Assembly: GCA_001772615.1 (NCBI GenBank)
Contig: MEUZ01000003.1
Location: 109,698-173,697, forward strand
DNA: 64,000 nt
DNA from: a candidate division WWE3 bacterium RIFCSPHIGHO2_01_FULL_40_23
Lineage (GTDB): Bacteria; Patescibacteriota; WWE3; UBA101185; 2-01-FULL-41-18
Direction: 5' to 3'
Shown here piece after piece: positions 3,124 through 64,000 of this stretch. Position numbers and translations under genes: made by a program. The notes below the pieces were generated by a model. It had not been told where the DNA came from. It did not search any database and worked only from the letters and a program-made list of their open reading frames with translations. Position 1 is the stretch's first letter, and each line of letters opens with the position of its first letter.

Positions 3124-4806
3124 TTAATTAATGGATTTAAGGGGTGCTTCAATAGATTCTTTTTCTTTAGCTTCGGCTTCGGCACTTTCTTTAATTGACT
3201 TTTCAACAGTCTTGTCCGCCTTGCTTGGGAAGAGAGTTTTAGCAAGGGATTTAAATGCGTTAACCCAGAACTTAGGGGAGAGCACATTTACTTTTGTTTG
3301 GTTAGGATCAAAATCAAGAAGATGCCCTACAAGCTTCCAAGCGGAGTAATAAAGATACTTGATATCATCTAAAGTCCTTATTTCCAAAGCTCTTCTTAAC
3401 ATATACCTTGGGGTAAAAAATGAAGAGTACAGCTCTTGGGTCAGCTCCAGAATTTGCTCATTCGTCAAGGGGCTTTTCATAACGGCTTTTCTCATGTCAT
3501 ATTCTTCATAATCCTCCGTTAGAAGCCACCCCTTCTCCCCGCATTCTTTCCAAAGCGGAGTTCCAGGATAAGGTATAACAATTGTAGCCTGCATGGTATC
3601 AACGTAACCTTTATCAAAGCACCTCTTGGCAAGCGCAATTGTGTTTTTGGCCATTTCATATGTTTCCCATGGGTACCCAAGCATTATGGTTAAGTGGGGA
3701 TCCAGGCCTGCCTTCTTTGCCATCCTAACACCCTCCTCAATCTGATGGACTTTAACACCTTTATCAAGCTTATCTAATGTGTATTGATTTCCTGATTCCA
3801 TCCCATAAAGAATAAACCTGAAGTTTGCCTTCCCCATAAGATCATAATATTCCTGGGTAAGAGCGTTAAGCCTCATATTACAGCCGTACACCACTTTTTT
3901 GCTGTATCCGCTATCTATTAAGAGATTACAGAAAGTTTTAAGCCACGGGCCAACGGCAAGCGTACCGGCGTCATCAAAAATTTCTTTAACTCCATAATTA
4001 TCTACAACATGCTTGACTTCGGCAAAAAGCCTTTCGGGCGTAAACCTTCTGTAAGAGCCGATTTCATTAATAGTATGATCCCAAACACAAAAGGTGCACC
4101 TATTCCACCAGCAGTCTCTTCCGGAATACATATATGTTGCAGGTGTAAATCTATAATTTCCGTTAGCATAAGCGTAATACTCCCAATGAGTTAGGTCGCG
4201 ATCCACAAATGGAAGCTCATCAAGAACATGCTTTAAAACCTGCCTTCCGCTGCATGCTAAATCCAATCCATTATCCGATTTCTCAATCTTGGCCGGTTCC
4301 TGTTTTACTCTTTTATCCCCCGCTCTATACCAAAACCCACCTTCCAGTTTTTCGCCACTCGTTAGGTGGTTGAGAAGATTAACGATAAGAAAATCATAAT
4401 CTCCGCCTGCAATAATGAAATCCACCGGAGAATGGTCAAAGGATTCCTTTGGAAGGAAAGTTACATGATCACCGCACCAGACTAAAATCATTTCGGGAAA
4501 TCTCTCTTTAAGATCCTTCATAACCTTCCAATGCTGTTTTATAACAGGAGCTTTTGTCTCAACAAGAAGAAGGTCGGGTTTTTCATTTGACAGCTCATCC
4601 AACCACTCGTTATACATTTGCTTAGCCGCTATCCCATCCATCCACACAACATCGTAACCGTGCTTCTTCAAGTTAGAGGCTGCGTAAGCCGGTACCATAG
4701 GATAGATATAAGTTTCAGCGTTAAAATATTGAAATTGTCTATTTTGTGATAGAAGAGGAACTCCTTTATCCGTTTCAATAGGCGGGTATCCAACGGCTAT
4801 TTTCAT
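3124..4806 (-). CDS. Radical-SAM enzyme with an N-terminal B12-binding domain. It may be a C-methyltransferase or glycan-modifying enzyme. It has an atypical Cys motif.
   Basis: The N-terminal Rossmann-like B12-binding region is followed by SGRDCWWNRCTFCVWD (Cx4Cx2C) and a TIM-barrel-like core. The C-terminus is a low-complexity, E/K-rich tail. Confidence 0.6.
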   Translation of the reverse strand: MKIAVGYPPIETDKGVPLLSQNRQFQYFNAETYIYPMVPAYAASNLKKHGYDVVWMDGIAAKQMYNEWLDELSNEKPDLLLVETKAPVIKQHWKVMKDLKERFPEMILVWCGDHVTFLPKESFDHSPVDFIIAGGDYDFLIVNLLNHLTSGEKLEGGFWYRAGDKRVKQEPAKIEKSDNGLDLACSGRQVLKHVLDELPFVDRDLTHWEYYAYANGNYRFTPATYMYSGRDCWWNRCTFCVWDHTINEIGSYRRFTPERLFAEVKHVVDNYGVKEIFDDAGTLAVGPWLKTFCNLLIDSGYSKKVVYGCNMRLNALTQEYYDLMGKANFRFILYGMESGNQYTLDKLDKGVKVHQIEEGVRMAKKAGLDPHLTIMLGYPWETYEMAKNTIALAKRCFDKGYVDTMQATIVIPYPGTPLWKECGEKGWLLTEDYEEYDMRKAVMKSPLTNEQILELTQELYSSFFTPRYMLRRALEIRTLDDIKYLYYSAWKLVGHLLDFDPNQTKVNVLSPKFWVNAFKSLAKTLFPSKADKTVEKSIKESAEAEAKEKESIEAPLKSIN

Positions 4807-10769: not shown

Positions 10770-12304
10770 TTCGCGTTAACATCAAGAGAAAAAACATACA
10801 CATTAGGACCAAACCTCTGCTCGCTTCTCTCAAAAGACTTTATCAAAGTTAAAAACTTTTTCACATTTTTATATTCCTCTGTATCAGAAAGCCTATCATT
10901 AGTGGCTATCGTTAAGTACGTCGCAGTTTCATTAACACTTATGTAAGAAAGGGACTTTATTCTCCTGTTCTTGTTGTCTATTTTTTCCATAACAGGGTCA
11001 AGATCCCTTCCGGAGTATATAACTTCCTTATCCAAGGGAATGTTTTCACCCGCCCATTCATAAAAAAGATTTCTGGTATCTTTTTCGGATAGCTTCACTG
11101 CATACTTAATTGAGTAAACAAAGGGTGGGAGAAAGACCACCGAAAACAAAATTAAAGAGAGAAGTTTATGTGAAATAAACATCTTCTTTGAAAGAACAAG
11201 ATTGTAGAATAAATTTGCCAAATAACCCACCACTAAGCTCACAAATGGGAAAACAAGCATATAATAATGTATCCTATTTTTTGAAAAACCTGTGATATAA
11301 AGGAAATAAAATAAGCCAGGAAGATAAATAAAAATCTTATCACTAGTCCGTTTAGTAAAAATGAAATAAATAAAGAAAAGTTCAAAAAGGAGAAGGAAAG
11401 AATACCCAAAATCTGAAATAATTTTTGTTGTTAGAACCTTCGATAGCTGAACGAAATACTGATCGGTACTCACCTTTCCCACATTCTCAAACTGCCAGAA
11501 AGCCCCTTTAGGTCCGTCATCCCTGGTGAAAGTATCAAAGTCAAAAAGAGCATATGGGGTACCTACAAAAAAAGAAGTCAAAGAGACAAAAGCGGCAAGC
11601 AGAAGGTTGGCTGACGCCTTTTTAAAACCGTCACCTAGCCTTAAGAGTTCATGGGTTTTCAAATATAAAATATAAGCTAAGAAAATAACAAATACCGAAA
11701 ATCCTCCGTTATATTTAGTTGAAGCAGAAAGACCTGCAAATAAAGCGGCTAAAACATACCATTTCCTTTTCCCTTCTAGCATTATTAATGAAGAAAAATA
11801 AACGGAAAGACTAAACCAGAAGGTCATGGGAACATCAATGAGTGCAAAATGCGAGTTATATGCATGATATGGAAACAAGGTTATGGCAAGAGCTGATAAA
11901 AGCCCAACCCTCTCATTAAAAAGCTTTTTACCTGTGAGAAAAACAGGAATTGCAGTAAAAGCCCCCAGGGCTGCATTAAATATCCTTGAAGCAAGATAAA
12001 AAACAAGCGGGTCTCTCCATAAAATAGGCATCAAATTTGAAATAAAGGGTTTTAAACCAAGAACCTGAAAGGCACCTCTAACAACATATATAAGCATATA
12101 AAGAAAAAAGTTTAGGTAAAAATGAAGGTGCGGCCAATCAAAATGCTTGGGATTTGATTCAAACCTTATACCCGTCGCGGTTCTCACAAGCGCGGGCTCA
12201 TCTACACTATAAATAAAAGGAAAACCATAACTTATTCCATATAATCTTAAGAAAAGCCCTAATAATAATATCAATAAAAGAGGTTTACTCACCTTTTTTA
12301 ACAT
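10766..12304 (-). CDS. GT-C fold membrane glycosyltransferase of the PMT_2/ArnT-like type.
   Basis: A DEP motif sits in the first periplasmic loop (FIYSVDEPALVRTATG). The protein has about 12 TM helices. Confidence 0.6.
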   Translation of the reverse strand: MLKKVSKPLLLILLLGLFLRLYGISYGFPFIYSVDEPALVRTATGIRFESNPKHFDWPHLHFYLNFFLYMLIYVVRGAFQVLGLKPFISNLMPILWRDPLVFYLASRIFNAALGAFTAIPVFLTGKKLFNERVGLLSALAITLFPYHAYNSHFALIDVPMTFWFSLSVYFSSLIMLEGKRKWYVLAALFAGLSASTKYNGGFSVFVIFLAYILYLKTHELLRLGDGFKKASANLLLAAFVSLTSFFVGTPYALFDFDTFTRDDGPKGAFWQFENVGKVSTDQYFVQLSKVLTTKIISDFGYSFLLLFELFFIYFIFTKRTSDKIFIYLPGLFYFLYITGFSKNRIHYYMLVFPFVSLVVGYLANLFYNLVLSKKMFISHKLLSLILFSVVFLPPFVYSIKYAVKLSEKDTRNLFYEWAGENIPLDKEVIYSGRDLDPVMEKIDNKNRRIKSLSYISVNETATYLTIATNDRLSDTEEYKNVKKFLTLIKSFERSEQRFGPNVYVFSLDVNAK

Positions 12305-13829: not shown

Positions 13830-14691
13830 CCAGAAGACTTACTAAAAGCCTTATAAGATGATAAACGATAGATGCCGAAATGGCTCCTTCAAGCGAAACT
13901 CCCACCTGCAAGAAAAGAAGCCCGTAGAGAGCATCCTGAACCCCAAAAGAATTCTGGGAGGGTATGAAAAAACTCGCGAGTATTATCACTGGGAAGGCAA
14001 AAAAGGAAAACCCTAAAGGAATAGGAAATCCTAGTGAAACAAAAATAAAATGCTGCGTAAGGATTGAAAATACCTGAACAAAAATAGAAGTTATAAAGGC
14101 GTAAATTAAAACTCCCTTCTGCCCTTTATATACTTTTAACGCGTCTGAAAACTCTTTTAACTTTCTAATCTTCAAAGAAAGCTTATCAATAACCTTAAAG
14201 AATACAAAAATTGCAACCCAAAACCCGAAAAACATCAAAAAGCCATAGATTTTAAAAACCCCAATCAAACCATAAGTAGCAAATAAACTTAAAATTACAA
14301 CACCGCTGAATCTTTCCATAAACGTTGCGGCAAAGGCTTTAGAATGATCTTTTATATATCGTCCAAGCCTAAAAGCCTTATAAACATCTCCCCCAATACT
14401 AGTTGGTAGAAAATTATTAAAAAATGCTCCTATAAAATAAAGTTTAACCAAAGTAAAAAGTTTAACATGCTCTGTTCCATCAAAAATACTTAACAGCTTT
14501 CTCCACCTTAAAGAAGAAACCACATAATTTAAAATGATAAAGGAAAGAATTATAGGTAAATAAAAAAAGTCAATCCCTTTAATGCTTTCTATAAACAATC
14601 TTTTATCAATCTTATAAAAGATTAAAGCTAACAAAAAGATACTGACAAAAACTTTTATCAACGTTTTTTTAAAATTTTCGGTTTCCTTCAT
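13801..14691 (-). CDS. Flippase-like membrane protein with a lysylphosphatidylglycerol-synthase-TM-like (UPF0104) region.
   Basis: The sequence FFNNFLPTSIGGDVYKAFRLG is typical of the family. The protein has about 8 TM segments. Confidence 0.5.
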   Translation of the reverse strand: MKETENFKKTLIKVFVSIFLLALIFYKIDKRLFIESIKGIDFFYLPIILSFIILNYVVSSLRWRKLLSIFDGTEHVKLFTLVKLYFIGAFFNNFLPTSIGGDVYKAFRLGRYIKDHSKAFAATFMERFSGVVILSLFATYGLIGVFKIYGFLMFFGFWVAIFVFFKVIDKLSLKIRKLKEFSDALKVYKGQKGVLIYAFITSIFVQVFSILTQHFIFVSLGFPIPLGFSFFAFPVIILASFFIPSQNSFGVQDALYGLLFLQVGVSLEGAISASIVYHLIRLLVSLLGGVFYAIEK

Positions 14692-16133
14692 CTTTTTAAA
14701 TTTAATATCAACCGTTTAATACTAATAACCTTCAACTTATCTACAACGTATAAACAAATTAGAGAGTACACTAAGTAAAACAAAAATCTAAGTAGGAAAC
14801 CAGACACAAAAAAGTGTGGGAAGGTTATAAGCGTTAAGCAAATTGTCAGAACCAAAAACTTTTGATCAAGAATATTAAATTTAAGACCCCTCTTAATCAT
14901 AAAATATAAACTAATAAATGAAAGCGCAGAGCCCAAAAATAAAGCGAGAGACATTGAATTTATACTACTAAACTTAAGAACAGATAACATAAAAAATGAT
15001 GCAACCGAAGTAAAAAGAAGAATAAAATATGAAACGGACATCTCAACAATCATTTTAGAGGGTATGAGGATACTTGATTTAATAATGTTAACATAGGAGT
15101 AAAATGTGAAGGCAAGAACAAGAGGTACTATTATCGGAAAAACGGACGAGTATTTTGATCCCACAGCAAATAAAATTATCTCCTTTGAAAAGTATATTTG
15201 AGAAAGAGCCGCAAACAATATCAAGACATAAAGCTTGTCAAAATTTTCGTGGAAAAGTTTCTTAAAACCTTCAAGGTTTTGGGTAAATTCTTTTGAAAAT
15301 ACAGGAAGGTTTACATCAGTTAGGGCATCAGAAATCGCCATAAGCTTGGATGAATAAAGAACCGCAAAACTGAAAATCCCAACGACCTCTAGAGACTCAA
15401 AATACCCTAAAGTGATTTGGCCAAACTTATACCATAACGTATATAAAACTTTAACAAAGTATATTCCAAGACTTAATATAAGCACATTTCTAAAAATCAG
15501 TTTAAACTCCCCTCCCGATGGAAGCTTTAAATGAGATCTTATAGGCCATAAAGCAAGAAAAGCCAAACTAAAAGATGACACAACATTAAACAAAGTCAAA
15601 GCAATAAAATAACCGTTCACACGATAATAAAAAACCAATGGTGCATAAAGAACAAGACTGACGAGCGATATACAAGCCTGATATAAAAAAAGCCTCTTAA
15701 ATCTTTGAAGACCTGCAATAACTGAATTAAATATGCTTTGAACTCCCTGTATAACCAAAACAAGAGAGTAAAGCCTCAACGGAAAAATTATTTCACTATG
15801 TTTATAAACATGCTCCGAAAGATAAGGAGCTAAAATAAAAAGACCAAGAGCAATAGGCAGTGTAATTATATATTTAATGGCTACGGAAGAAACAAAAATC
15901 TTAAATACGTCTTCTTCCCCTTTAGATGCGGAGATTTCCCTTGTTGTTCCCGATGCAAGGCCCAAATGTTGTGCGATACCAAAAAGGGCTCCGACGGCAC
16001 CCACAATCCCCACCAAACCAAACTCCGAAACCGTCAGAATCCTTGTAATAATTACACTCTGAAGAAGACCGACAACAAGGGCTGAAAACCTTGAGATTAT
16101 GCTAAATATCTGCCATTTACCAAGGCTACTCAC
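14688..16133 (-). CDS. Polysaccharide-biosynthesis flippase of the Wzx/MOP superfamily.
   Basis: This is a 481-aa polytopic membrane protein. Confidence 0.55.
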   Translation of the reverse strand: MSSLGKWQIFSIISRFSALVVGLLQSVIITRILTVSEFGLVGIVGAVGALFGIAQHLGLASGTTREISASKGEEDVFKIFVSSVAIKYIITLPIALGLFILAPYLSEHVYKHSEIIFPLRLYSLVLVIQGVQSIFNSVIAGLQRFKRLFLYQACISLVSLVLYAPLVFYYRVNGYFIALTLFNVVSSFSLAFLALWPIRSHLKLPSGGEFKLIFRNVLILSLGIYFVKVLYTLWYKFGQITLGYFESLEVVGIFSFAVLYSSKLMAISDALTDVNLPVFSKEFTQNLEGFKKLFHENFDKLYVLILFAALSQIYFSKEIILFAVGSKYSSVFPIIVPLVLAFTFYSYVNIIKSSILIPSKMIVEMSVSYFILLFTSVASFFMLSVLKFSSINSMSLALFLGSALSFISLYFMIKRGLKFNILDQKFLVLTICLTLITFPHFFVSGFLLRFLFYLVYSLICLYVVDKLKVISIKRLILNLKR

Positions 16134-53843: not shown

Positions 53844-54995
53844 TTGGATTATTTCCTTTTAAATAGGGTCGATCCTGATTTGATCACGTTGCTAAACTAC
53901 AAATTTATCCTGACACTTTTACTATTCTCCATATTTCTGTTGCTTATCAATACAAGTATTTTTCCTTACATGTTGCACATCTTGATTTTCTCATTAATAC
54001 TACCCATTTACATTATTCTTATGTTTTGGAAATCGAAAAACTGGCTACTAACTTTTTCAATTGTTGATAATTTAATTGAGGGTTTAACACACTTTAAAAG
54101 AAAATTTATATTAGTAACCTTGTTGATTATGTCAACGGTAGTAATATTTAACTTCGAAAGTGCGGTATTACTATACGCTACCAGTTTATTCTTATTAATC
54201 TATTTACTAATAACATACTTCATTGCTTTTACTAAACCTTTTAAAAAATCAATATTATTTGAATCATTTTCTAACTTATCCATTAAACTTACCAAATCAT
54301 CCTTCACTAAGAGACTTATAGAAATTAATGAAGAATTAAGAGGCAAAGAACTTAACACATTCAACCAAACCCAAGAAATACTATATGCAAACAACCTCCA
54401 ATTAGCTGTGATCGCTCATAGAGGTATGTATTTTATAGCAAACAAATTATCAATGTATAAAAAGAGTAGAATTTACCTTTACCATATTTCAATAAATATT
54501 ATATTTCTCTTTTTATTTTCTGCTTTTATTTTTAGCCTTATAAATTTTGCGTTATATAAGATTAGCTCTAGCAATTTCGCCTACTCTGGTACTTTTGGTT
54601 GGTTTGACTTTTTATACTACAGCTCTTTTGCAATGTTTTCAGGTGGTTCTGAAAATCTTTCTCCAGTATCCATCTTATCCAAAGTAATAAAAATGATAAT
54701 GTTAGTATCTGCAGGTATTATCATTTTAACTATAATTCTTAATGTTTCCTTCCTAGTAAAAGGTGAGAAGTATAAAGAAGATATTGACGAATTAGCTGAA
54801 ACTTTAAAGAAAAACAGTGAATATTTTCAAAATTTTATATCTGAAGAATATAACTTATCAATTTTTCAGGCAATAGAAATACTGCATAAGCTGAAATCCG
54901 GTTTTATTACCCTTATATTCATGCTTTCTCAGGACATACCAGGAATAGAAAATTTAAGGTCAGAAGATGAATCAAAGAAAGACAACAATAAGTAA
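53844..54995 (+). CDS. Polytopic membrane protein of unknown function in an AT-rich accessory segment.
   Basis: The 383-aa protein has 8 or more hydrophobic helices. Its codon usage is extremely AT-rich compared with its neighbours. Confidence 0.45.
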   Translation: MDYFLLNRVDPDLITLLNYKFILTLLLFSIFLLLINTSIFPYMLHILIFSLILPIYIILMFWKSKNWLLTFSIVDNLIEGLTHFKRKFILVTLLIMSTVVIFNFESAVLLYATSLFLLIYLLITYFIAFTKPFKKSILFESFSNLSIKLTKSSFTKRLIEINEELRGKELNTFNQTQEILYANNLQLAVIAHRGMYFIANKLSMYKKSRIYLYHISINIIFLFLFSAFIFSLINFALYKISSSNFAYSGTFGWFDFLYYSSFAMFSGGSENLSPVSILSKVIKMIMLVSAGIIILTIILNVSFLVKGEKYKEDIDELAETLKKNSEYFQNFISEEYNLSIFQAIEILHKLKSGFITLIFMLSQDIPGIENLRSEDESKKDNNK

Positions 54996-55079
54996 TATTA
55001 ACATGTCAAATTAAAAATTTCTCTTCTGCTCTTGTATTTTCTTAGTTGAGCCTTCTCTCAGAAACCCGCGAGAATAAGT

Positions 55080-56385: not shown

Positions 56386-57510
56386 TCAGTTTAAGTCGCC
56401 GCACCAGGCGAGAAATAGTGAATCTGATAAAGGTAAATGACGGATACCGATAGCAAGAGGACGGCCTAAACGTAGATTTTGGAGAGAAATATTCAGAATT
56501 GTTTCTGATTTTCCAGGGGCAGAATTGGTTTTAAGTCCGTTAATCACTTCTGTTAAGGGATACGCTACCAATCCAATGGCAAGGCAAGACCCCTTATAAA
56601 TATTTGCGGGTGGTTTTCCAGCCATAAAGTCTAATTGAATCACAATTTTTGTTTTTTCATTGCCTAGATCAGTAAGTGTCGCAATACTCACACCATTTCC
56701 TTCTCCGCTGTTTTGAGGGGTTAAGGGTATATAATATGTATCGTTTGTAAAAGTTTTCAAATTTTCAGCAACATATGGTGTTTGGGATATGTCAGGCGTT
56801 TCAGTTGAAGTAGTTGAAGTATTTGATCTCCACTGAAAAGTTCTCAATATTGTATCTGTTTCTTTAAAGAAATCAGCATAAAGACTGACGGGTGTCCAGC
56901 CCTCAACCTCTGCTTTTATTTGGTGTAAATAATTTATACAAATCTGTTTTTTGGTAATGTCAAGCAAGTCGCATCTGATCCTTTCGACGACAGGCTTGGA
57001 GAGTACAAAAGTGAGATCCTTATTTTTATCGGTAATAAGATCTATTGACGTGACTCTTTGACTTCCCACCACACTTGTGCGGCTTATTACATTGTTGTCC
57101 ATGTTGATCACCAACATGTCTTTTGATACTGGACCTTGATCCATGGAGGTTTCATCCACCCACGTGTCAGTTTTTGTATTATAGATTGATCGGGAAAGTT
57201 GACCAGAAAATTGTATATCTTCGATACCTTTAACGAGGGTAATTGTTGCAACGCTCAAATATTTTATGTCTGCCTCAGTAAATAATTTAGGGGTTATGAG
57301 AAATTTTTCTAGACATACTCCGTTAAATTTGTTATCGCAATCAGTTTTCGTAATAGAGAAACTGTTTGGCACCTGAAAAGAATAACCGTACGTATCGCTT
57401 CTATAAGTGTCGACAATTTGATTTTTACCCTGATTCAGTCCGGTCAAATAAATAATTCTAGCTATACATAACAATGCAAAAGCGCTGATAATTAAAATTA
57501 CTTTTTTCAT
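56386..57510 (-). CDS. Secreted protein of unknown function (about 375 aa) with an N-terminal signal peptide.
   Basis: The start is taken at MKKVILIISAFALLCIA. The track ORF runs further into the tRNA gene, and that extension was rejected. Confidence 0.55.
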   Translation of the reverse strand: MKKVILIISAFALLCIARIIYLTGLNQGKNQIVDTYRSDTYGYSFQVPNSFSITKTDCDNKFNGVCLEKFLITPKLFTEADIKYLSVATITLVKGIEDIQFSGQLSRSIYNTKTDTWVDETSMDQGPVSKDMLVINMDNNVISRTSVVGSQRVTSIDLITDKNKDLTFVLSKPVVERIRCDLLDITKKQICINYLHQIKAEVEGWTPVSLYADFFKETDTILRTFQWRSNTSTTSTETPDISQTPYVAENLKTFTNDTYYIPLTPQNSGEGNGVSIATLTDLGNEKTKIVIQLDFMAGKPPANIYKGSCLAIGLVAYPLTEVINGLKTNSAPGKSETILNISLQNLRLGRPLAIGIRHLPLSDSLFLAWCGDLN

Positions 57511-57596
57511 ATTTCTAAGTTCGCTTATTAGCGGTTTGCTTCTTTGGTGCACTGGTGGGGGGAACAGCAACCCTACCTCTTTTGTGATTTCCAAAA

Positions 57597-57673
57597 TGGT
57601 GACCCTGGGGGGATTCGAACCCCCGGTCTTCGCCCTGAGAAGGCGACGTCCTAAACCGCTAGACGACAGGGCC
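57597..57673 (-). tRNA. tRNA-Glu (anticodon CUC).
   Basis: The sequence is GGCCCTGTCGTCTAGCGGTTTAGGACGTCGCCTTCTCAGGGCGAAGACCGGGGGTTCGAATCCCCCCAGGGTCACCA. It folds into a cloverleaf with a 7-bp acceptor stem, a TTCGAAT T-loop and an encoded CCA end. Confidence 0.85.
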
Positions 57674-57773
57674 ACAAAACCCACTTCTGCTTCATGGGAT
57701 CCCCACTTTCGTGGGGATGACGGTGCGACCGTCATTTTTGCATTATACCATCAGGAATAATATACTTTAGAAA

Positions 57774-60479: not shown

Positions 60480-62369
60480 TTATAGTAACACAGAAATTAA
60501 GGCTGTAAAAAGCGGCACATGGTAAAATGACAACCAAAGCATTGTTGTCATCCCGGATCTCAAACATTGGGGGGTCGTATAACGGTAGTACAGCGCCCTC
60601 TGGAGGCGTTTATCGGGGTTCGAATCCCTGCCCCCCAGCCATGAAAAACTGGCAGCTTGTAGGACATTGGTATTTGTTACAGCATCAATACTTTTTTCAG
60701 GTTCGAACTTTGTAACGACATTTTGAATTGTATCCTTTCCCTTCTCTATCAAATACCATGCTTTTTCCCCGTCAATATGTAATTTTCTGTCCTTAATAAA
60801 TAGGTTCGAACCAAGTGCGTTTAGTATTGCAACTTTAGTTTTCGCATCTCCATTAGCAAACCAGTAACGGGCATAACATGCGAAATCAAATGCACGAGTT
60901 GACGTTTCCAACCAAGTATTTTGTCGTGTGCTTAGCTTTTGTTTTTCCACCAAAAGCGCTTCCTTTTCGCTCAATAACGATACTTTTTGTTTGTTCAATT
61001 CGTCTGGCGTTAATAATACGTGTGTAGTATTTTGAGGTGAAATATACAGTTTTGTAAGGTTATCAATCCTGCTTTCCACATCCTTAAGTGCAGAATTGAT
61101 ATTACTGCTTATTATCAGTCTATCGGTAAATTCAACATCTGTTAATTCGTTTAGGTATTTTATTGCCCAATCACGCAAGCGGGTAGATATTTCTATTTTC
61201 TTTAGTGCAAAATCTACAGTATTTTCCAGCTCCTTCAACGTTAAACTACCCTCGGTGCAGGAAGGAGTGGTTTTACCAGCACAGACGTAGTAAATATAAT
61301 GCAATATCTTCTTATGTTTCATATTTTCGATTAAAGTGCCGCAAGCAGAGCAGGCTTTCCTGGTTTTAGTTAATGCGAATTTATTCTTACAATCGCATAT
61401 AATTTGCAATTTTTCCTCAAATGTAATGCTGCCTCCGCAACCACCGCATCTTAATGCCTTTTTGAAAATACCCTCTTTTTTAGACGTAGGCGATTTTACA
61501 GTCTTACCTAGAATAATTTGTATTTTTTCAAATTCTTCTTTGCTAATCATTTTTTTATGATTACCCCAACCTTCAACTAATTTTCCGTCTACGACACGTA
61601 CCATCCAACCATAATAAAACGGGTCTGATACTATGCGATAGAAAGAACTTTTAGATAGAGGTCTGCCGCCTTGTCTTGCTGTTCTTCTCGTACGATAGCC
61701 CCATACATTATTTAGAAGCTCCAAAACCTCCATCCTGGTATAGTTTCCAGTTAAAAGTAGTTGTAACGCCTTGCTTAATAATCCCCATTGTTTTTCATCA
61801 ATATCGATGTACTTTTCTTTTGTGATCGGATTTTCCTTGTTTATGTATCCTGGCTTGGCGAATCCTGCCCATTCCTTTTGCTCGAAAAACTTTTCTTTAT
61901 TACCTCGCCGTACAGCATCCGATTTATCATCCGAGTCCCGAGTTGCACGTGTAAACTCCTGCATCAGGTATTCTTTATCTCTGCCTGTGTTTTCATAAAT
62001 TGCATGAGGTGTTATTACATAGCTTAGAAGCCCATCAGACATAAGTTGAACAAATTCGCCGCCTTCTTTATAATTCCTGTTGAGCCGATTAGCATGCCAA
62101 CATAAAACAACTTGGACTTTACCCGTTTTGATTTCTTCGATCAATTTTCTGTAGTCTTTTCTTCCCGTTTCAAATGCCGAGGCTTTTTCTTCATAATCGG
62201 ATGTAATCTTAAGATCATATCTATCTATAATTTGCTCGTGAATGTCTGCATTTTGCCCAGGTAATGATCTTATTTGCTTGTCTTCCGCATCCTTTGTGGA
62301 TTTACGTTTATAACAGCTTATGCCTAAGGTTTTTATTTCTTCAATTAGTTCAGGGCTAAAATAAGCCAT
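60480..62369 (-). CDS. Large serine recombinase (phage-type integrase). The last ~55 codons of the ORF run antisense through tRNA-Gln, so the real C-terminus is uncertain.
   Basis: The N-terminal resolvase domain reads ISCYKRKSTKD...GKVQVVLCWHANRLNRN. A recombinase domain and a zinc ribbon (CGGCGGS...CDC...CSACG) follow. Confidence 0.8.
   Translation of the reverse strand: MAYFSPELIEEIKTLGISCYKRKSTKDAEDKQIRSLPGQNADIHEQIIDRYDLKITSDYEEKASAFETGRKDYRKLIEEIKTGKVQVVLCWHANRLNRNYKEGGEFVQLMSDGLLSYVITPHAIYENTGRDKEYLMQEFTRATRDSDDKSDAVRRGNKEKFFEQKEWAGFAKPGYINKENPITKEKYIDIDEKQWGLLSKALQLLLTGNYTRMEVLELLNNVWGYRTRRTARQGGRPLSKSSFYRIVSDPFYYGWMVRVVDGKLVEGWGNHKKMISKEEFEKIQIILGKTVKSPTSKKEGIFKKALRCGGCGGSITFEEKLQIICDCKNKFALTKTRKACSACGTLIENMKHKKILHYIYYVCAGKTTPSCTEGSLTLKELENTVDFALKKIEISTRLRDWAIKYLNELTDVEFTDRLIISSNINSALKDVESRIDNLTKLYISPQNTTHVLLTPDELNKQKVSLLSEKEALLVEKQKLSTRQNTWLETSTRAFDFACYARYWFANGDAKTKVAILNALGSNLFIKDRKLHIDGEKAWYLIEKGKDTIQNVVTKFEPEKSIDAVTNTNVLQAASFSWLGGRDSNPDKRLQRALYYRYTTPQCLRSGMTTMLWLSFYHVPLFTALISVLL
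60567..60640 (+). tRNA. tRNA-Gln (anticodon CUG).
   Basis: The sequence is TGGGGGGTCGTATAACGGTAGTACAGCGCCCTCTGGAGGCGTTTATCGGGGTTCGAATCCCTGCCCCCCAGCCA. It shows the U1:A72 pair and G73 typical of bacterial tRNA-Gln, and the CCA end is encoded. Confidence 0.85.
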
Positions 62370-62413
62370 AATTCCTTATATAAAAACGTATGGGCAGTTG
62401 AAATAAATATGTA

Positions 62414-62632
62414 TTAAACGTTACTTACATTATTATCGCAGAATTTGCCTTTTATGTTCAAATTTTCTGTTGCAATCGGTTTATAAATCAGGCTGAACAG
62501 TTGTAAAAATTCCATAGCCTTTTTTTCCACATCGGAATCGTCAAAATTTATACCGTAATCTTGTTTACATATTTCCTTAAATGCACTTAAAGCCTCGGGA
62601 CTTAATGATCTTCTTAAAGACTCTTTTTTCAT
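62414..62632 (-). CDS. Small hypothetical protein of 72 aa, co-transcribed with the RHH gene.
   Basis: Its start overlaps the RHH stop by 1 nt (TGATG). Confidence 0.4.
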   Translation of the reverse strand: MKKESLRRSLSPEALSAFKEICKQDYGINFDDSDVEKKAMEFLQLFSLIYKPIATENLNIKGKFCDNNVSNV

Positions 62633-62787
62633 CAGTCCACCCCAACATCTGGTAGGAATTCTTTAATTGCATATTCAACAAGTTCCTTGATTGACTTTTC
62701 TTCTGCTGCGGCAAGTCTCTTTAAGTCTTTATGCAGTTTAGAATCAATTCTTATTAACTTGGTATCCTTTTTTAACTTATTACGCAT
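62632..62787 (-). CDS. Ribbon-helix-helix (CopG/Arc-like) DNA-binding protein of 51 aa. It is not in the ORF track.
   Basis: The sequence is MRNKLKKDTKLIRIDSKLHKDLKRLAAAEEKSIKELVEYAIKEFLPDVGVD. A beta strand followed by two helices gives the RHH pattern. Confidence 0.5.
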   Translation of the reverse strand: MRNKLKKDTKLIRIDSKLHKDLKRLAAAEEKSIKELVEYAIKEFLPDVGVD

Positions 62788-63046
62788 AGTAAACTTATTT
62801 ACCTTAAAAAACCTCCAACCCCCTCTAGTTACCTGGTCTATCCTCTATGAACAGAGCTACCCCCTCCTGGAATGCTGTCCAGGTCATCAGGTTAATTCAT
62901 GTCGGATGAGCCAGCTACGATTAAGAGTCCTCTTAGTGGCACACATTGGTGGGACTAGGTATCGTAGAACCTCTACGTTTTTAGATTAGATTTATTTTTG
63001 ACGGGATACTATGGTAATAATTATCTTAAATTTATCCTCAATTATT

Positions 63047-63784
63047 CTATGAGGTTATAGGTAGCGGGTTAAATTTGTAGCCTCTGCCTCGTACGTTAAT
63101 AAACATCTCGGTTAGCATTTCTTTGGGTACACCCACCCCCTGTAGAATTTTTAACATCCTTAATTTGATTTTATGAATTACCAGGGTCTTGTCCGTATCT
63201 GTATAAGCATTAAGGTCAAGAAGTCTATCAATCTCCTCAAAAGTTAATAATTCCCCAGGTTTACTAAAATGATGGATGAGAAGTCTGTCGGGATTATTAT
63301 TTATACTTAAATCTGCCCATTTATTTTTATAACTAATTTTGGCGTTAAAGGCATCTAAAACTAAAGCCCCGTACTTATATAAGCCTTCGGATTCGTGGTT
63401 GACAACACAAGCCTTAAGTTTAGCTAAGTTTATATTTTTAACCCAAATATGCTCCGTACCTAACTGTACGAACGTAAAACAAGTATCGTTATTTGCCGCA
63501 CTCGTACAAATATCATCAACGACAGCTTTAGTTGCACCTGTTTTTTTGTTAAGGAATCTTTTATAAGGAATTTTTAGTGAGTCTACCTTTTTTAATGCGG
63601 TGGCTTGCTCAAAAACAGAAAACAAAATTTCTTTTCTAAGCTCTAAAAGATCTGCCTTATTATAAACAAAATTGCCCGTATTTTCTTCCATAAAATTGCG
63701 GGCAGTAAATAAGTTACTTTTTCTTAAATTTTTTTGTACAAGAGAGGTAATCCGTTGTGGGTGTCTGGGACTCCCGACACCCAA
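63047..63784 (-). CDS. Putative transcriptional regulator with a C-terminal winged-helix (OmpR/PhoB-type) DNA-binding domain. The true start may be the internal Met near 63691.
   Basis: The C-terminus ...MLTEMFINVRGRGYKFNPLP resembles the trans_reg_C wing. The N-terminal region is unassigned. Confidence 0.4.
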   Translation of the reverse strand: MGVGSPRHPQRITSLVQKNLRKSNLFTARNFMEENTGNFVYNKADLLELRKEILFSVFEQATALKKVDSLKIPYKRFLNKKTGATKAVVDDICTSAANNDTCFTFVQLGTEHIWVKNINLAKLKACVVNHESEGLYKYGALVLDAFNAKISYKNKWADLSINNNPDRLLIHHFSKPGELLTFEEIDRLLDLNAYTDTDKTLVIHKIKLRMLKILQGVGVPKEMLTEMFINVRGRGYKFNPLPITS

Positions 63785-63987
63785 CTCTCTACCGCTATTT
63801 TACTCTTTTTACGATTAAACTTAACATACACTTTTGAATTACGGGTGTTGTTATTAAGTCTATCCTTGTCAAAGTAACCTTTCAGGGTAAATATGAGCTG
63901 TAACGCACGAAGACGTACAGACCAATCGGCTTCTGTTTTACCTGCCCCCCTAACAGTTCTGGTCGCCTCCAAGGCGTTTTTTAGCAT
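63724..63987 (-). CDS. Hypothetical ORF of 87 aa that overlaps the upstream end of the regulator gene.
   Basis: There is ORF-track support only. No motif was found, and the 5' end lies near the window edge. Confidence 0.2.
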   Translation of the reverse strand: MLKNALEATRTVRGAGKTEADWSVRLRALQLIFTLKGYFDKDRLNNNTRNSKVYVKFNRKKSKIAVESWVSGVPDTHNGLPLLYKKI

Positions 63988-64000
63988 TGTTACGAGTTCC

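Follow-up and report, generated by a model that had tools for sequence, protein, structure and literature searches.

In a bacterium of the candidate phylum WWE3 (Patescibacteria), the 3' end of a tRNA-Gln gene is occupied by an island of ~8.3 kb (about 8.26 kb between its junctions), and we are fairly confident that it is an integrative element placed there by a large serine integrase of a widespread, tRNA-targeting family, that this integrase carries attP inside its own ORF, and that the cargo is an HpaII-type system. Positions 60633–64000 of the window, the stretch of 64,000 nucleotides that was analyzed, form the integrase-proximal end of the element; the remainder was viewed in L001, a copy of this contig that extends farther, in which the far junction was located. 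The core of a sequence-only reading of the window holds: it had proposed that a mobile element with a large serine recombinase is integrated at tRNA-Gln and that one of its ends is in view. The window contains the following features.

60480..62369, minus strand: large serine recombinase ORF, 629 aa as integrated (Pfam, PDB profile, Foldseek)
60568..60641, plus strand: tRNA-Gln(CUG), intact (ARAGORN; Rfam tRNA, 57.4 bits)
60617..60624, minus (integrase) strand: T-loop sequence TTCGAACC, 17–24 nt from the core start
60633..60641, minus strand: 9-bp common core TGGCTGGGG, antisense of the tRNA end CCCCAGCCA, repeated at L001 3468–3476
60697..60708, minus strand: motif m2, GTTCGAACCTGA, encoding F-E-P, 67 nt upstream of the core
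60800..60811, minus strand: motif m1, GTTCGAACCTAT within GGTTCGAACC (10-bp palindrome), encoding G-S-N-L
62414..62632, minus strand: 72-aa protein, just upstream of the integrase, overlapping the ribbon–helix–helix (RHH) gene by 1 nt
62632..62787, minus strand: 51-aa RHH (Omega/Arc-like) repressor (Omega_Repress E 5e-8, RHH_1, PHROG Arc-like repressor)
63047..63691, minus strand: 214-aa cargo protein as called in the public record; the ORF spans 63047–63784
63724..64000, minus strand: 3' portion of a gene for a 158-aa protein, which continues beyond the window edge

The recombinase ORF reads antisense through the whole tRNA, as the sequence-only reading had described, with the tRNA ending 1 nt beyond the position 60640 given there. 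Profile searches, which that reading had proposed as a check, found both a Resolvase domain (PF00239, E 2.1e-11) and a Recombinase domain (PF07508, E 5.3e-5; 23.9 bits against a cut-off of 21.1). Residues R22 and S24 of the catalytic domain with its nucleophilic serine are invariant across 34 sequences, as are C308, C311, C325, C327, C340, and C343 of the recombinase and zinc-ribbon region with its coiled coil. PDB profile matches include the SPbeta integrase (E 4e-21) and the TP901-1, TnpX, and PhiC31 integrases. An AF2 model (pLDDT 80.5 overall) has a β-rich region at residues 306–392 and long helices at 396–443 and 455–506, and Foldseek relates it to the SPbeta (E 1.9e-17), Bxb1 (3e-13), and LI (3e-10) integrases, with PhiC31 also matched. 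The ORF is intact and keeps all of the residues that are invariant in the family. Its conserved part ends with WLG (about position 60633); from about residue 577 the integrase is encoded by the antisense tRNA (WLGGRDSNPDKRLQRALYYRYTTPQ...), such that residues 578–629 derive from antisense tRNA and host DNA up to the stop codon at 60480.

The far end of the element carries a second copy of TGGCTGGGG 8.26 kb from the tRNA-end copy, with the conserved arm GTTCGAACCTAT at +21 from L001 3468. Sites of this TGGCTGGGG+GTTCGAACCTAT type occur twice in L001 against 0.002 expected (2000 shuffles); the second, a weaker far-junction-like site, is at L001 2894. A 574-bp leftover of an older insertion probably precedes the element. 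We found no long direct repeat of the tRNA 3' end, with only 9 nt shared rather than the ~15–50 nt tRNA repeat of tyrosine-integrase islands. Such a long repeat is not expected for serine integrases, and the search for a 15–45 nt repeat that the sequence-only reading had recommended is unsuited to this enzyme class, the repeat being 9 bp here and down to 4 nt elsewhere in the family. No gene with a Phage_integrase domain was called between the two junctions, and the sole recombinase is of the serine type. Joining L001 11640–11737 to 3477–3560 reconstructs attP, and joining L001 3400–3476 to 11738–11830 reconstructs attB. In the tRNA half-site, TTCGAACC starts at +17; in the P' arm it starts at +22 and occupies 22–29 nt, 5 bp farther out. 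This holds for L001 and for all 25 family loci with two delimited junctions; the element-side motif of the P' arm is GTTCGAACC. This outward shift is the same as the rule established for the LI integrase, in which the motif recognized by the zinc-ribbon domain (ZD) lies 5 bp nearer the center in attB than in attP (PMC3783163). We therefore propose TTCGAACC in the tRNA as the putative ZD recognition motif of an attB-type half-site, so that the sites would show the centerward displacement in attB typical of serine integrases; simple att sites with a short shared core (9 bp here, 4 nt across 25 loci) are likewise typical of them. As a point against our reading, the P arm has no evident mirror copy of the motif.

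Based on this anatomy, tRNA-Gln would constitute the B' half of the hybrid site attL, with the element now supplying its last nucleotides (positions about 71–76). The proposed attB would consist of B', that is, the acceptor 3' strand and T-arm of the tRNA with T-loop TTCGAACC as ZD motif, and B, a variable stretch of ~20 bp that follows the tRNA. The attP site would span the 3' end of the integrase ORF, the P arm being the codons that end the conserved protein (...SFSWL) and the P' arm containing GTT(C/A)GAACCTAT, which lies 5 bp farther from the crossover than the T-loop does in the tRNA and encodes WLG-IVEEVRTY.... Crossover probably occurs inside the 9-bp core, which the family comparison narrows to the 4 nt GCTG at 60636–60639, and the exact crossover dinucleotide presumably lies among these. 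Strand exchange within ~4 nt around the discriminator base would leave the tRNA intact. The core falls in integrase codons W577-L-G, and the codons of the native tail are at the far junction; with attP thus within the integrase ORF, integration is predicted to swap the C-terminal tail of the protein, which would account for the antisense read-through of the tRNA. The integrase would keep all of its domains while its short native tail, left behind at the far junction (attR), is replaced by a disordered tail encoded by the antisense tRNA.

The reconstructed free form of the integrase, predicted to have 605 aa, ends with WLGIVEEVRTYIINAP..., in agreement with family members that are not beside a tRNA (DEIRTYY, DDIRTYY, HEVRTWF). 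An exact look-up of this predicted sequence among ~15 billion proteins returned no match. The C-termini of many homologs that end in WLxx and a stop codon were considered as free forms and rejected, as they are integrated forms with an in-frame TAG in the T-stem. We think it probable that neither the read-through nor the tail swap has a function, both being by-products, that the integrase works alike with either tail, and that the conservation of VRTY reflects a constraint on the P' DNA. The tRNA-encoded tail is predicted to be disordered (pLDDT <50); integrated tails range from 4 to >50 aa, many stopping at the TAG inside the T-stem; and the DNA motif fixes the first 11 tail codons, beyond which an open frame of 24 codons is about what chance allows. 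Two observations run counter to this explanation: a second peptide motif, [DYF][IVT]P, recurs 8–11 residues past RT in 7/36 tails, and the integrase ORF crosses the core in every member of the family.

The arrangement is family-wide: GTDB genomes yielded 214 relatives, of which the best 80 loci, from Patescibacteria genomes, were analyzed. In 52 of these 80 the integrase gene ends antisense in an opposite-strand tRNA, either Ser, Gln, Asn, Met, Trp, or Phe, and in 44 loci the tRNA 3' end is within 4 nt of the predicted core (Ser 13, Gln 11, Asn 11, Met 5, Trp 3, Phe 1). At 25 loci, where 0.46 would be expected by chance, the arm motif recurs upstream and, at a constant distance from it, 4 nt or more match the tRNA end. 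These loci delimit elements of 4.4–11.2 kb, and within the family the identity between the two sites can be as short as 4 nt.

The genes upstream of the integrase are organized as an RHH-p72-int operon that opens with the RHH gene. The sequence-only reading had correctly recognized both the RHH gene and the tightly coupled 72-aa gene. The RHH protein is not a conserved partner of the integrase and the 72-aa protein is: among the best 80 of 214 loci, the RHH protein is next to int in 3, whereas 38 have a homolog of the 72-aa protein, encoded on the integrase strand and usually no more than ~2 kb upstream of int. AF2 predicts two helices for the 72-aa protein, for which Pfam, PDB-sequence, and Foldseek searches gave no match and which does not resemble SPbeta SprB; a word-index search returned only the protein itself, and a full HMMER search 22 weak relatives. 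The 72-aa protein is a candidate directionality or accessory factor that may participate in excision.

Two further T-loop-like sequences, m1 and m2, are located within the integrase gene, m1 exactly 103 nt upstream of m2 and the P' motif 88 nt beyond m2. Their synonymous sites are fixed family-wide, and the six strongest synonymous biases among 213 conserved codon columns are all in m1 and m2 (G values of 37–121, median 3.3): serine is encoded by TCG in 35/38 cases (background 0.14), asparagine by AAC in 49/49 (background 0.43), and proline by CCT in 39/44 (background 0.30). The motifs encode the conserved LGSNL and FEP of the folded C-terminal region, as would be expected if protein constraint or codon bias, and not a DNA or RNA signal, explained their conservation; the concentration of the six top-ranking biases in these two motifs makes that explanation very unlikely. 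We also considered m1 as an RNA mimic of a T-arm and dropped this idea because inspection of the sequences revealed no stem-preserving covariation of the flanking bases. It is conceivable, if rather improbable, that m1, m2, and the P' motif make up a composite attP in which they are bound as accessory sites by the zinc-ribbon domain of the integrase or by its 72-aa partner, with the tail exchange acting as a switch of directionality or expression. If so, the free form would have the native tail and the integrated form the tRNA-encoded tail, a type of directionality control not known from serine integrases, and the family would offer a natural enzyme platform directed at a near-universal tRNA T-loop sequence.

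The cargo consists of an HpaII-type restriction-modification system with Vsr, a LexA/CI-like S24 repressor, the RHH protein, and small regulators. The restriction endonuclease, C5 cytosine methyltransferase, and Vsr are encoded together at L001 5551–8116, outside the window (RE_HpaII E 9e-116, DNA_methylase E 1e-107, Vsr E 8e-28), the gene content of a type II HpaII-like system; the guess that the cargo might include defense systems has thus proved right. The 214-aa protein has no match in Pfam, PHROGs, or PADLOC, because of which the label of winged-helix regulator previously given to its ORF is unsupported, and no homolog of it is present at the best 80 of 214 related loci. The intergenic region at 62788–63046 was rejected as a structured RNA (z = +0.33, no Rfam match). 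The terminator-like hairpin described there, at 62963–62982, exists as a hairpin at 62963–62977 followed by a T-run, but it is on the plus strand, opposite to every flanking gene, and the region has no excess of terminator-like sites (4 vs. 3.1 ± 1.9 in shuffles). It seems unlikely that we are dealing with a temperate phage, or with a phage satellite of the PICI or tycheposon kind, and not with a nonviral defense island. The LexA/CI-like S24 repressor and the Arc-like RHH protein would suit a phage, as would the N-terminus of the 158-aa protein, outside the window, which weakly resembles a small terminase subunit or HTH (PHROG 51, E 5.5e-8); some family members have Prim-Pol/AAA_25 or DnaG-type primase genes beside the integrase, and tycheposons bearing large serine recombinases are known. 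However, the element measures only 8.3 kb, it encodes no capsid, portal, tail, or lysis proteins and, for packaging, only the weak small-terminase-like match, which is under the Pfam cut-off (Terminase_2, 25.2 bits vs. 26.1), and a scan of IMG/VR found no family member.

With regard to mobility, the same element (99.92% identity, 2541 nt) is found beside an identical tRNA-Gln with an unrelated flank past the tRNA 5' end, and relatives whose NYN is 80–83% identical have tRNA-Gln(CTG) beside NYN-VanW without a recombinase. The proposed comparison with related genomes therefore yielded a tRNA-Gln free of the recombinase but not the exact empty site, the closest relatives being rearranged on the far side. 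A degenerate 36-mer covering all four junction types, which works locally, had 0 matches in the JGI metagenome collection because the collection lacks this organism, which gives the search no power. The same junction test for another family member (L103-type) found one occupied contig only and no empty attB or circular attP. In all seven long integrase-bearing contigs, from several samples, the integrase is at the same place, and the copy may thus be stable or fixed in the population. We regard it as quite unlikely, nevertheless, that the element is a fixed or domesticated remnant that integrated once and is no longer mobile, its recombinase being kept for other reasons or decaying. Such a remnant would agree with the constant location, with the failure to find an empty site, circular form, or free-form protein, and with a GC content like that of the host (0.365–0.38 for the element and 0.375 for the host), which lacks the compositional separation that the sequence-only reading had suggested looking for. 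Against it are the intact ORF with every invariant family residue, the well-kept att architecture, the near-identical element beside tRNA-Gln with a different host flank, and the absence of the element from relatives. We favor an element that may still be mobile.

Serine integrases are the chief tools for large-DNA insertion; in nature they usually target idiosyncratic protein-coding genes. The whole clade described here appears to read the T-arm and acceptor end of tRNAs, sites found in every genome, and to have switched among at least six tRNA species, which suggests a modular code composed of a constant T-loop motif and a variable acceptor part. Mobile elements of Patescibacteria are poorly known, and our analyses identify defense-carrying small islands as mobile DNA in this group.

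The integrase shares with PhiC31, Bxb1, A118/LI, and SPbeta SprA the catalytic domain, αE helix, recombinase and zinc-ribbon domains, and coiled coil, as well as short att sites with few identical base pairs and the 5-bp ZD shift. Unlike those systems, its target is a tRNA 3' end with the T-loop as the motif probably recognized, attP is inside its own ORF, two extra motif copies are under synonymous constraint, its 72-aa partner does not resemble known directionality factors, and its hosts are Patescibacteria. Islands and prophages placed in tRNA genes by tyrosine integrases are similar in their 3'-end insertion, intact tRNA, adjoining integrase, and defense cargo, but the enzyme family is different, the repeat is 4–12 nt rather than roughly 15–50 nt, and arm-type sites of the lambda kind are absent. 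The "suicidal" SSV-type integrases likewise have an att site inside the integrase gene and a compact int-att module; they are tyrosine recombinases, reported to be exclusive to archaea, that integration splits into inactive halves (PMC8371274). In contrast, the present enzyme is a serine recombinase that is not divided into Int(N) and Int(C): all domains up to residue 577 are contiguous and the swap is confined to a short tail at the C-terminus, such that a trait described for archaeal tyrosine integrases is present in a milder bacterial form. The tycheposons of Prochlorococcus, 27/937 of which carry a large serine recombinase, are also small cargo-bearing elements stacked at tRNA genes; they belong to a different phylum, and the likeness is by description only, as the att anatomy of the serine-recombinase members is absent from that report (bioRxiv 10.1101/2020.12.28.424599). 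The largest catalog of serine-integrase sites does not contain the word tRNA in its main text (PMC10083194). TIGER predicted 14/297 serine-integrase islands at t(m)RNA genes, a use of these genes then described as unreported and needing proof, and gave no family, mechanism, or att anatomy (PMC7192596). Serine integrases have scarcely been reported at tRNA genes, and the arrangement that the sequence-only reading called usual is not so for this enzyme class; the present family helps to fill this gap by supplying a coherent sequence-level account of such sites.

The sequence-only reading placed an integrated mobile element with a large serine recombinase at tRNA-Gln; this element is real and that main interpretation is right, and we regard the anatomy and integration model described here as highly probable. 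The window holds the integrase-proximal end of the element:

60568-60641, plus strand: tRNA-Gln(CTG), called by ARAGORN, with which Rfam concurs (57.4 bits)
60480-62369, minus strand: integrase ORF of 629 aa with Resolvase and Recombinase domains (Pfam)
62414-62632, minus strand, upstream of the integrase: 72-aa gene, overlapping the RHH gene by 1 base
62632-62787, minus strand, upstream of the integrase: RHH gene (Omega_Repress, E 5e-8)
upstream of the RHH gene: 214/245-aa ORF with no detectable domain
upstream of that ORF: 158-aa gene, of which only the 3' part falls inside the window

From approximately residue 577 (WLGGRDSNPDKRLQRALYYRYTTPQ...), the integrase ORF reads through the tRNA on its antisense strand. 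A sequence profile search of the PDB matched the SPbeta integrase (E 4e-21), TP901-1, TnpX, and PhiC31, and the top Foldseek matches of the AF2 model (pLDDT 80.5) are the SPbeta, Bxb1, PhiC31, and LI integrases. The model is composed of the following segments:

residues 1-128: catalytic domain
residues 129-163: alpha-E helix
residues 175-286: recombinase domain
residues 306-392: zinc-ribbon domain (ZD)
residues 396-506: coiled coil
residues 509-577: extra C-terminal segment

Ten public contigs encode exactly this integrase protein, and on the seven that are 0.2-1 Mb in length its context is the same. Its source is candidate division WWE3 bacterium RIFCSPHIGHO2_01_FULL_40_23 (GCA_001772695.1). 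The whole element is visible in L001, a 21.9-kb segment of a 416-kb ENA contig that is identical to the window across their overlap (window coordinate = 72370 - L001 coordinate). The part of the element outside the window encodes:

Vsr
C5 cytosine methyltransferase (E 1e-107)
HpaII-type restriction enzyme (E 9e-116)
96-aa protein
LexA/CI-like S24 repressor
two unknown proteins

The earlier suggestion that the cargo may include defence systems is borne out by the restriction enzyme, the methyltransferase, and Vsr. The long direct repeat of the tRNA-Gln 3' end that had been anticipated was searched for and not found, and none is expected because the integrase is of the serine type. Instead, the far junction at L001 3468 carries 9 nt (TGGCTGGGG) that repeat the antisense tRNA end, with the arm sequence GTTCGAACCTAT at +21 from this core. 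A second, weaker site of the same P' (attP half) type lies at L001 2894 (TGGCTGG, then GTTGGAACTTAC at +21); two such sites are observed compared with 0.002 expected. These junctions therefore delimit an intact element of 8.26 kb (L001 3477-11737). The 574-bp segment between the two sites (L001 2894-3467), whose sole gene encodes an AAA_33/zeta-toxin-like kinase, looks like the remnant of an older insertion. Paired P' sites, 0.4-3.6 kb apart, are also present in three other family loci (L045, L053, and L083), suggesting that remnants of previous insertions have become stacked.

Fusing the two junctions, with the integrase-side sequence taken from the tRNA junction and the element-side sequence from the far junction, reconstructs the free form of the element; the reconstructed attP and attB junction strings are CAGTTTTTCATGGCTGGGGATCGTGGAAGAAGTTCGAACC and GACATTTCCCCTGGCTGGGGGGCAGGGATTCGAACC, respectively. 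The integrase of this form has 605 aa and the C-terminus WLGIVEEVRTYIINAPSMVDIPELVAVTV, in agreement with the tails of family members located away from tRNA genes (SLLASLDEIRTYY..., SLLRVMDDIRTYY..., and PMLSRALHEVRTWF...). Integration therefore substitutes a tail read from the antisense tRNA for the native one. In the AF2 model, pLDDT is below 50 from residue 578 onward, a prediction of disorder for the new tail, and we consider it unlikely that the exchange has a function.

Among 8000 candidates scored, 286 are relatives of the integrase at E <= 0.001 (36-63% identity), with Patescibacteria supplying most of those that bear names. GTDB genomes contain 214 loci with a gene for a relative; we analyzed the best 80 of these. 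An opposite-strand tRNA overlaps or abuts the end of the integrase in 52 of the 80, and in 44 of the 80 the tRNA 3' end lies within 4 nt of the position predicted from motifs internal to the gene; the tRNAs targeted in these 44 loci are Ser (13), Gln (11), Asn (11), Met (5), Trp (3), and Phe (1). Many homologs seem to end two residues past a conserved WL only because the T-stem holds an in-frame TAG. The arm motif GTTNGAACCTAT is found upstream in 25 loci with a core match exactly 21 nt ahead of it (0.46 expected by chance), a core match being at least 4 nt (GCTG, GCGG, GCTC, or GTTG) at the same place in the tRNA junction. The elements so delimited span 4.4-11.2 kb, as sizes visible within a 10-kb flank, and share the P' arm consensus t.GCtg.g.....T.gA..a.GTTaGAACcTatttt; the host side of these 25 junctions shows no conservation. 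The 4 nt that are always shared place the crossover at approximately tRNA positions 71-74, so the tRNA retains its full sequence.

In the tRNA half-site, TTCGAACC (antisense T-loop and stem) begins 17 nt from the core's first base, and in the P' arm TT(C/A)GAACC, here in the form GTTCGAACC, begins at 22 nt. The 9-bp ZD motif of the LI integrase is likewise shifted outward by 5 bp in attP relative to attB (positions 16-24 and 11-19, respectively; PMC3783163). From this spacing we hypothesize that the T-loop probably serves as the ZD motif of the family, which would explain moves among tRNA species with one constant contact. No mirror motif was found in the P arm.

The motif GTT(C/A)GAACCTA occurs 93 times on the integrase strand versus 22 on the opposite one across 1.37 Mb of loci. 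The integrase coding sequence contains two copies in addition to the P' copy:

m1: CTTGGTTCGAACCTAA, encoding LGSNL, in which GGTTCGAACC is a perfect palindrome
m2: GTTCGAACCTA, encoding FEP, which follows m1 at a distance of exactly 103 nt and precedes the core by 67 nt

Nineteen independent loci match the pattern m1-N94-m2-N75-TTCGAAC. Across 213 conserved codon columns in 50 full-length genes, the six strongest synonymous-codon biases all fall within m1 and m2 (G values of 37-121 versus a median of 3.3): Ser is TCG in 35 of 38 cases (background 0.14), Asn is AAC in 49 of 49 (0.43), Leu is CTA in 32 of 46 (0.14), and Pro is CCT in 39 of 44 (0.30). This concentration of bias therefore marks DNA- or RNA-level signals. 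Our leading guess, which we advance tentatively, is that the integrase or its partner binds m1 and m2 as accessory sites. Mimicry of a T-arm at the RNA level is unsupported, the flanks being without covariation.

Homologs of the 72-aa protein are encoded upstream of the integrase, on the same strand, in 38 of the 80 loci. It is predicted to form two helices and has no match in Pfam, PDB sequences, or PDB folds; it is the natural candidate directionality or accessory factor. The RHH protein is found again in just 3 of the 80 loci. In the 25 delimited elements, an XRE-type HTH protein is present in 14, and further recurrent cargo consists of OLD-like ATPases, ImmA-like peptidases, S24 repressors, and C5 methyltransferases. 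In L103 and L109 (a Roizmanbacteria-type element at tRNA-Asn) and in L111, Prim-Pol/AAA_25 or DnaG-type primase genes adjoin the integrase, and these members also carry a ThsB-like TIR protein, OLD-type ATPases, and type I restriction-modification or Mrr genes. The family apparently consists of small islands that are capable of replication and carry defence genes.

Two observations count for mobility of the element. The same element recurs in another sample, on a contig with 99.92% identity over 2541 nt, a match that extends 2 nt past the tRNA 5' end before unrelated flank, and relatives with an 80-83% identical NYN gene, the host neighbor, have tRNA-Gln(CTG) without any recombinase. Null searches for empty sites, circular junctions, the free-form protein, and family members in IMG/VR count against it: an exact look-up among about 15 billion proteins did not find the 605-aa integrase; a junction scan of the JGI metagenome collection, which is without the WWE3 organism, gave 0 matches; a junction scan for a second member (L103 type) gave one occupied contig only, with no empty site or circular junction; and a scan of IMG/VR found no family member. 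Many short public contigs (L008, L012, L099, L104-L107) break inside or just past the tRNA where the integrase ends; the probable cause is that other tRNA genes or strains share the 3' half of this tRNA. These breaks are evidence neither for nor against an empty site. On long contigs, integrases with native tails are surrounded by other mobile-element genes, and L111 has a second serine recombinase 9 kb downstream of the first, which fits tandem arrays in which the P' arm of the next element would restore a native-like tail.

Other features of the contig are recorded here in their own right. The terminator-like hairpin reported earlier is present at 62963-62977 on the plus strand (CGTAGAACCTCTACG followed by TTTTT) and lies opposite to all adjoining genes, in a region with no enrichment of terminator-like sites; it contains TAGAACCT, whose similarity to the family motif GTTAGAACCTAT may be due to chance. 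The longest ORF at 56386-57735 (minus strand, 449 aa) crosses tRNA-Glu(CTC) at 57597-57673 on the same strand; public annotations give 374-449 aa, and the long start is probably an overcall. GC content dips to 0.275 at 54001-55000, spanning an ORF at 53844-54995 (plus strand), and to 0.285 at 14001-15000, compared with about 0.375 for the window; these could be other foreign insertions. About 6.3 kb beyond the right end of the window, a GC-rich intergenic stretch of 321 nt (L001 1790-2110, minus strand of L001, corresponding to the window plus sense), flanked by a thioredoxin gene and small ORFs, folds far more stably than its shuffled versions (z = -5.79, equalled by 0 of 100 shuffles; z = -2.85 for the opposite strand). 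It has no Rfam match even at E <= 1 and could be a structured RNA of the WWE3 host that has escaped annotation.

Serine integrases have rarely been reported at tRNA genes: 14 of 297 serine-integrase islands were predicted at t(m)RNA genes, a prediction noted there as previously unreported and requiring proof (PMC7192596); among 937 tycheposon-type elements of Prochlorococcus, 27 have a large serine recombinase (bioRxiv 10.1101/2020.12.28.424599); and the word tRNA is absent from the main text of the largest serine-integrase site catalogue (PMC10083194). The WWE3 locus is a member of a coherent, previously undescribed clade of serine integrases that target tRNA genes and whose own ORF contains attP. 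An att site within the integrase gene has been described as exclusive to the archaeal "suicidal" tyrosine integrases (PMC8371274); unlike in those enzymes, the split in the present integrase takes off no more than a short tail and does not disable the enzyme.
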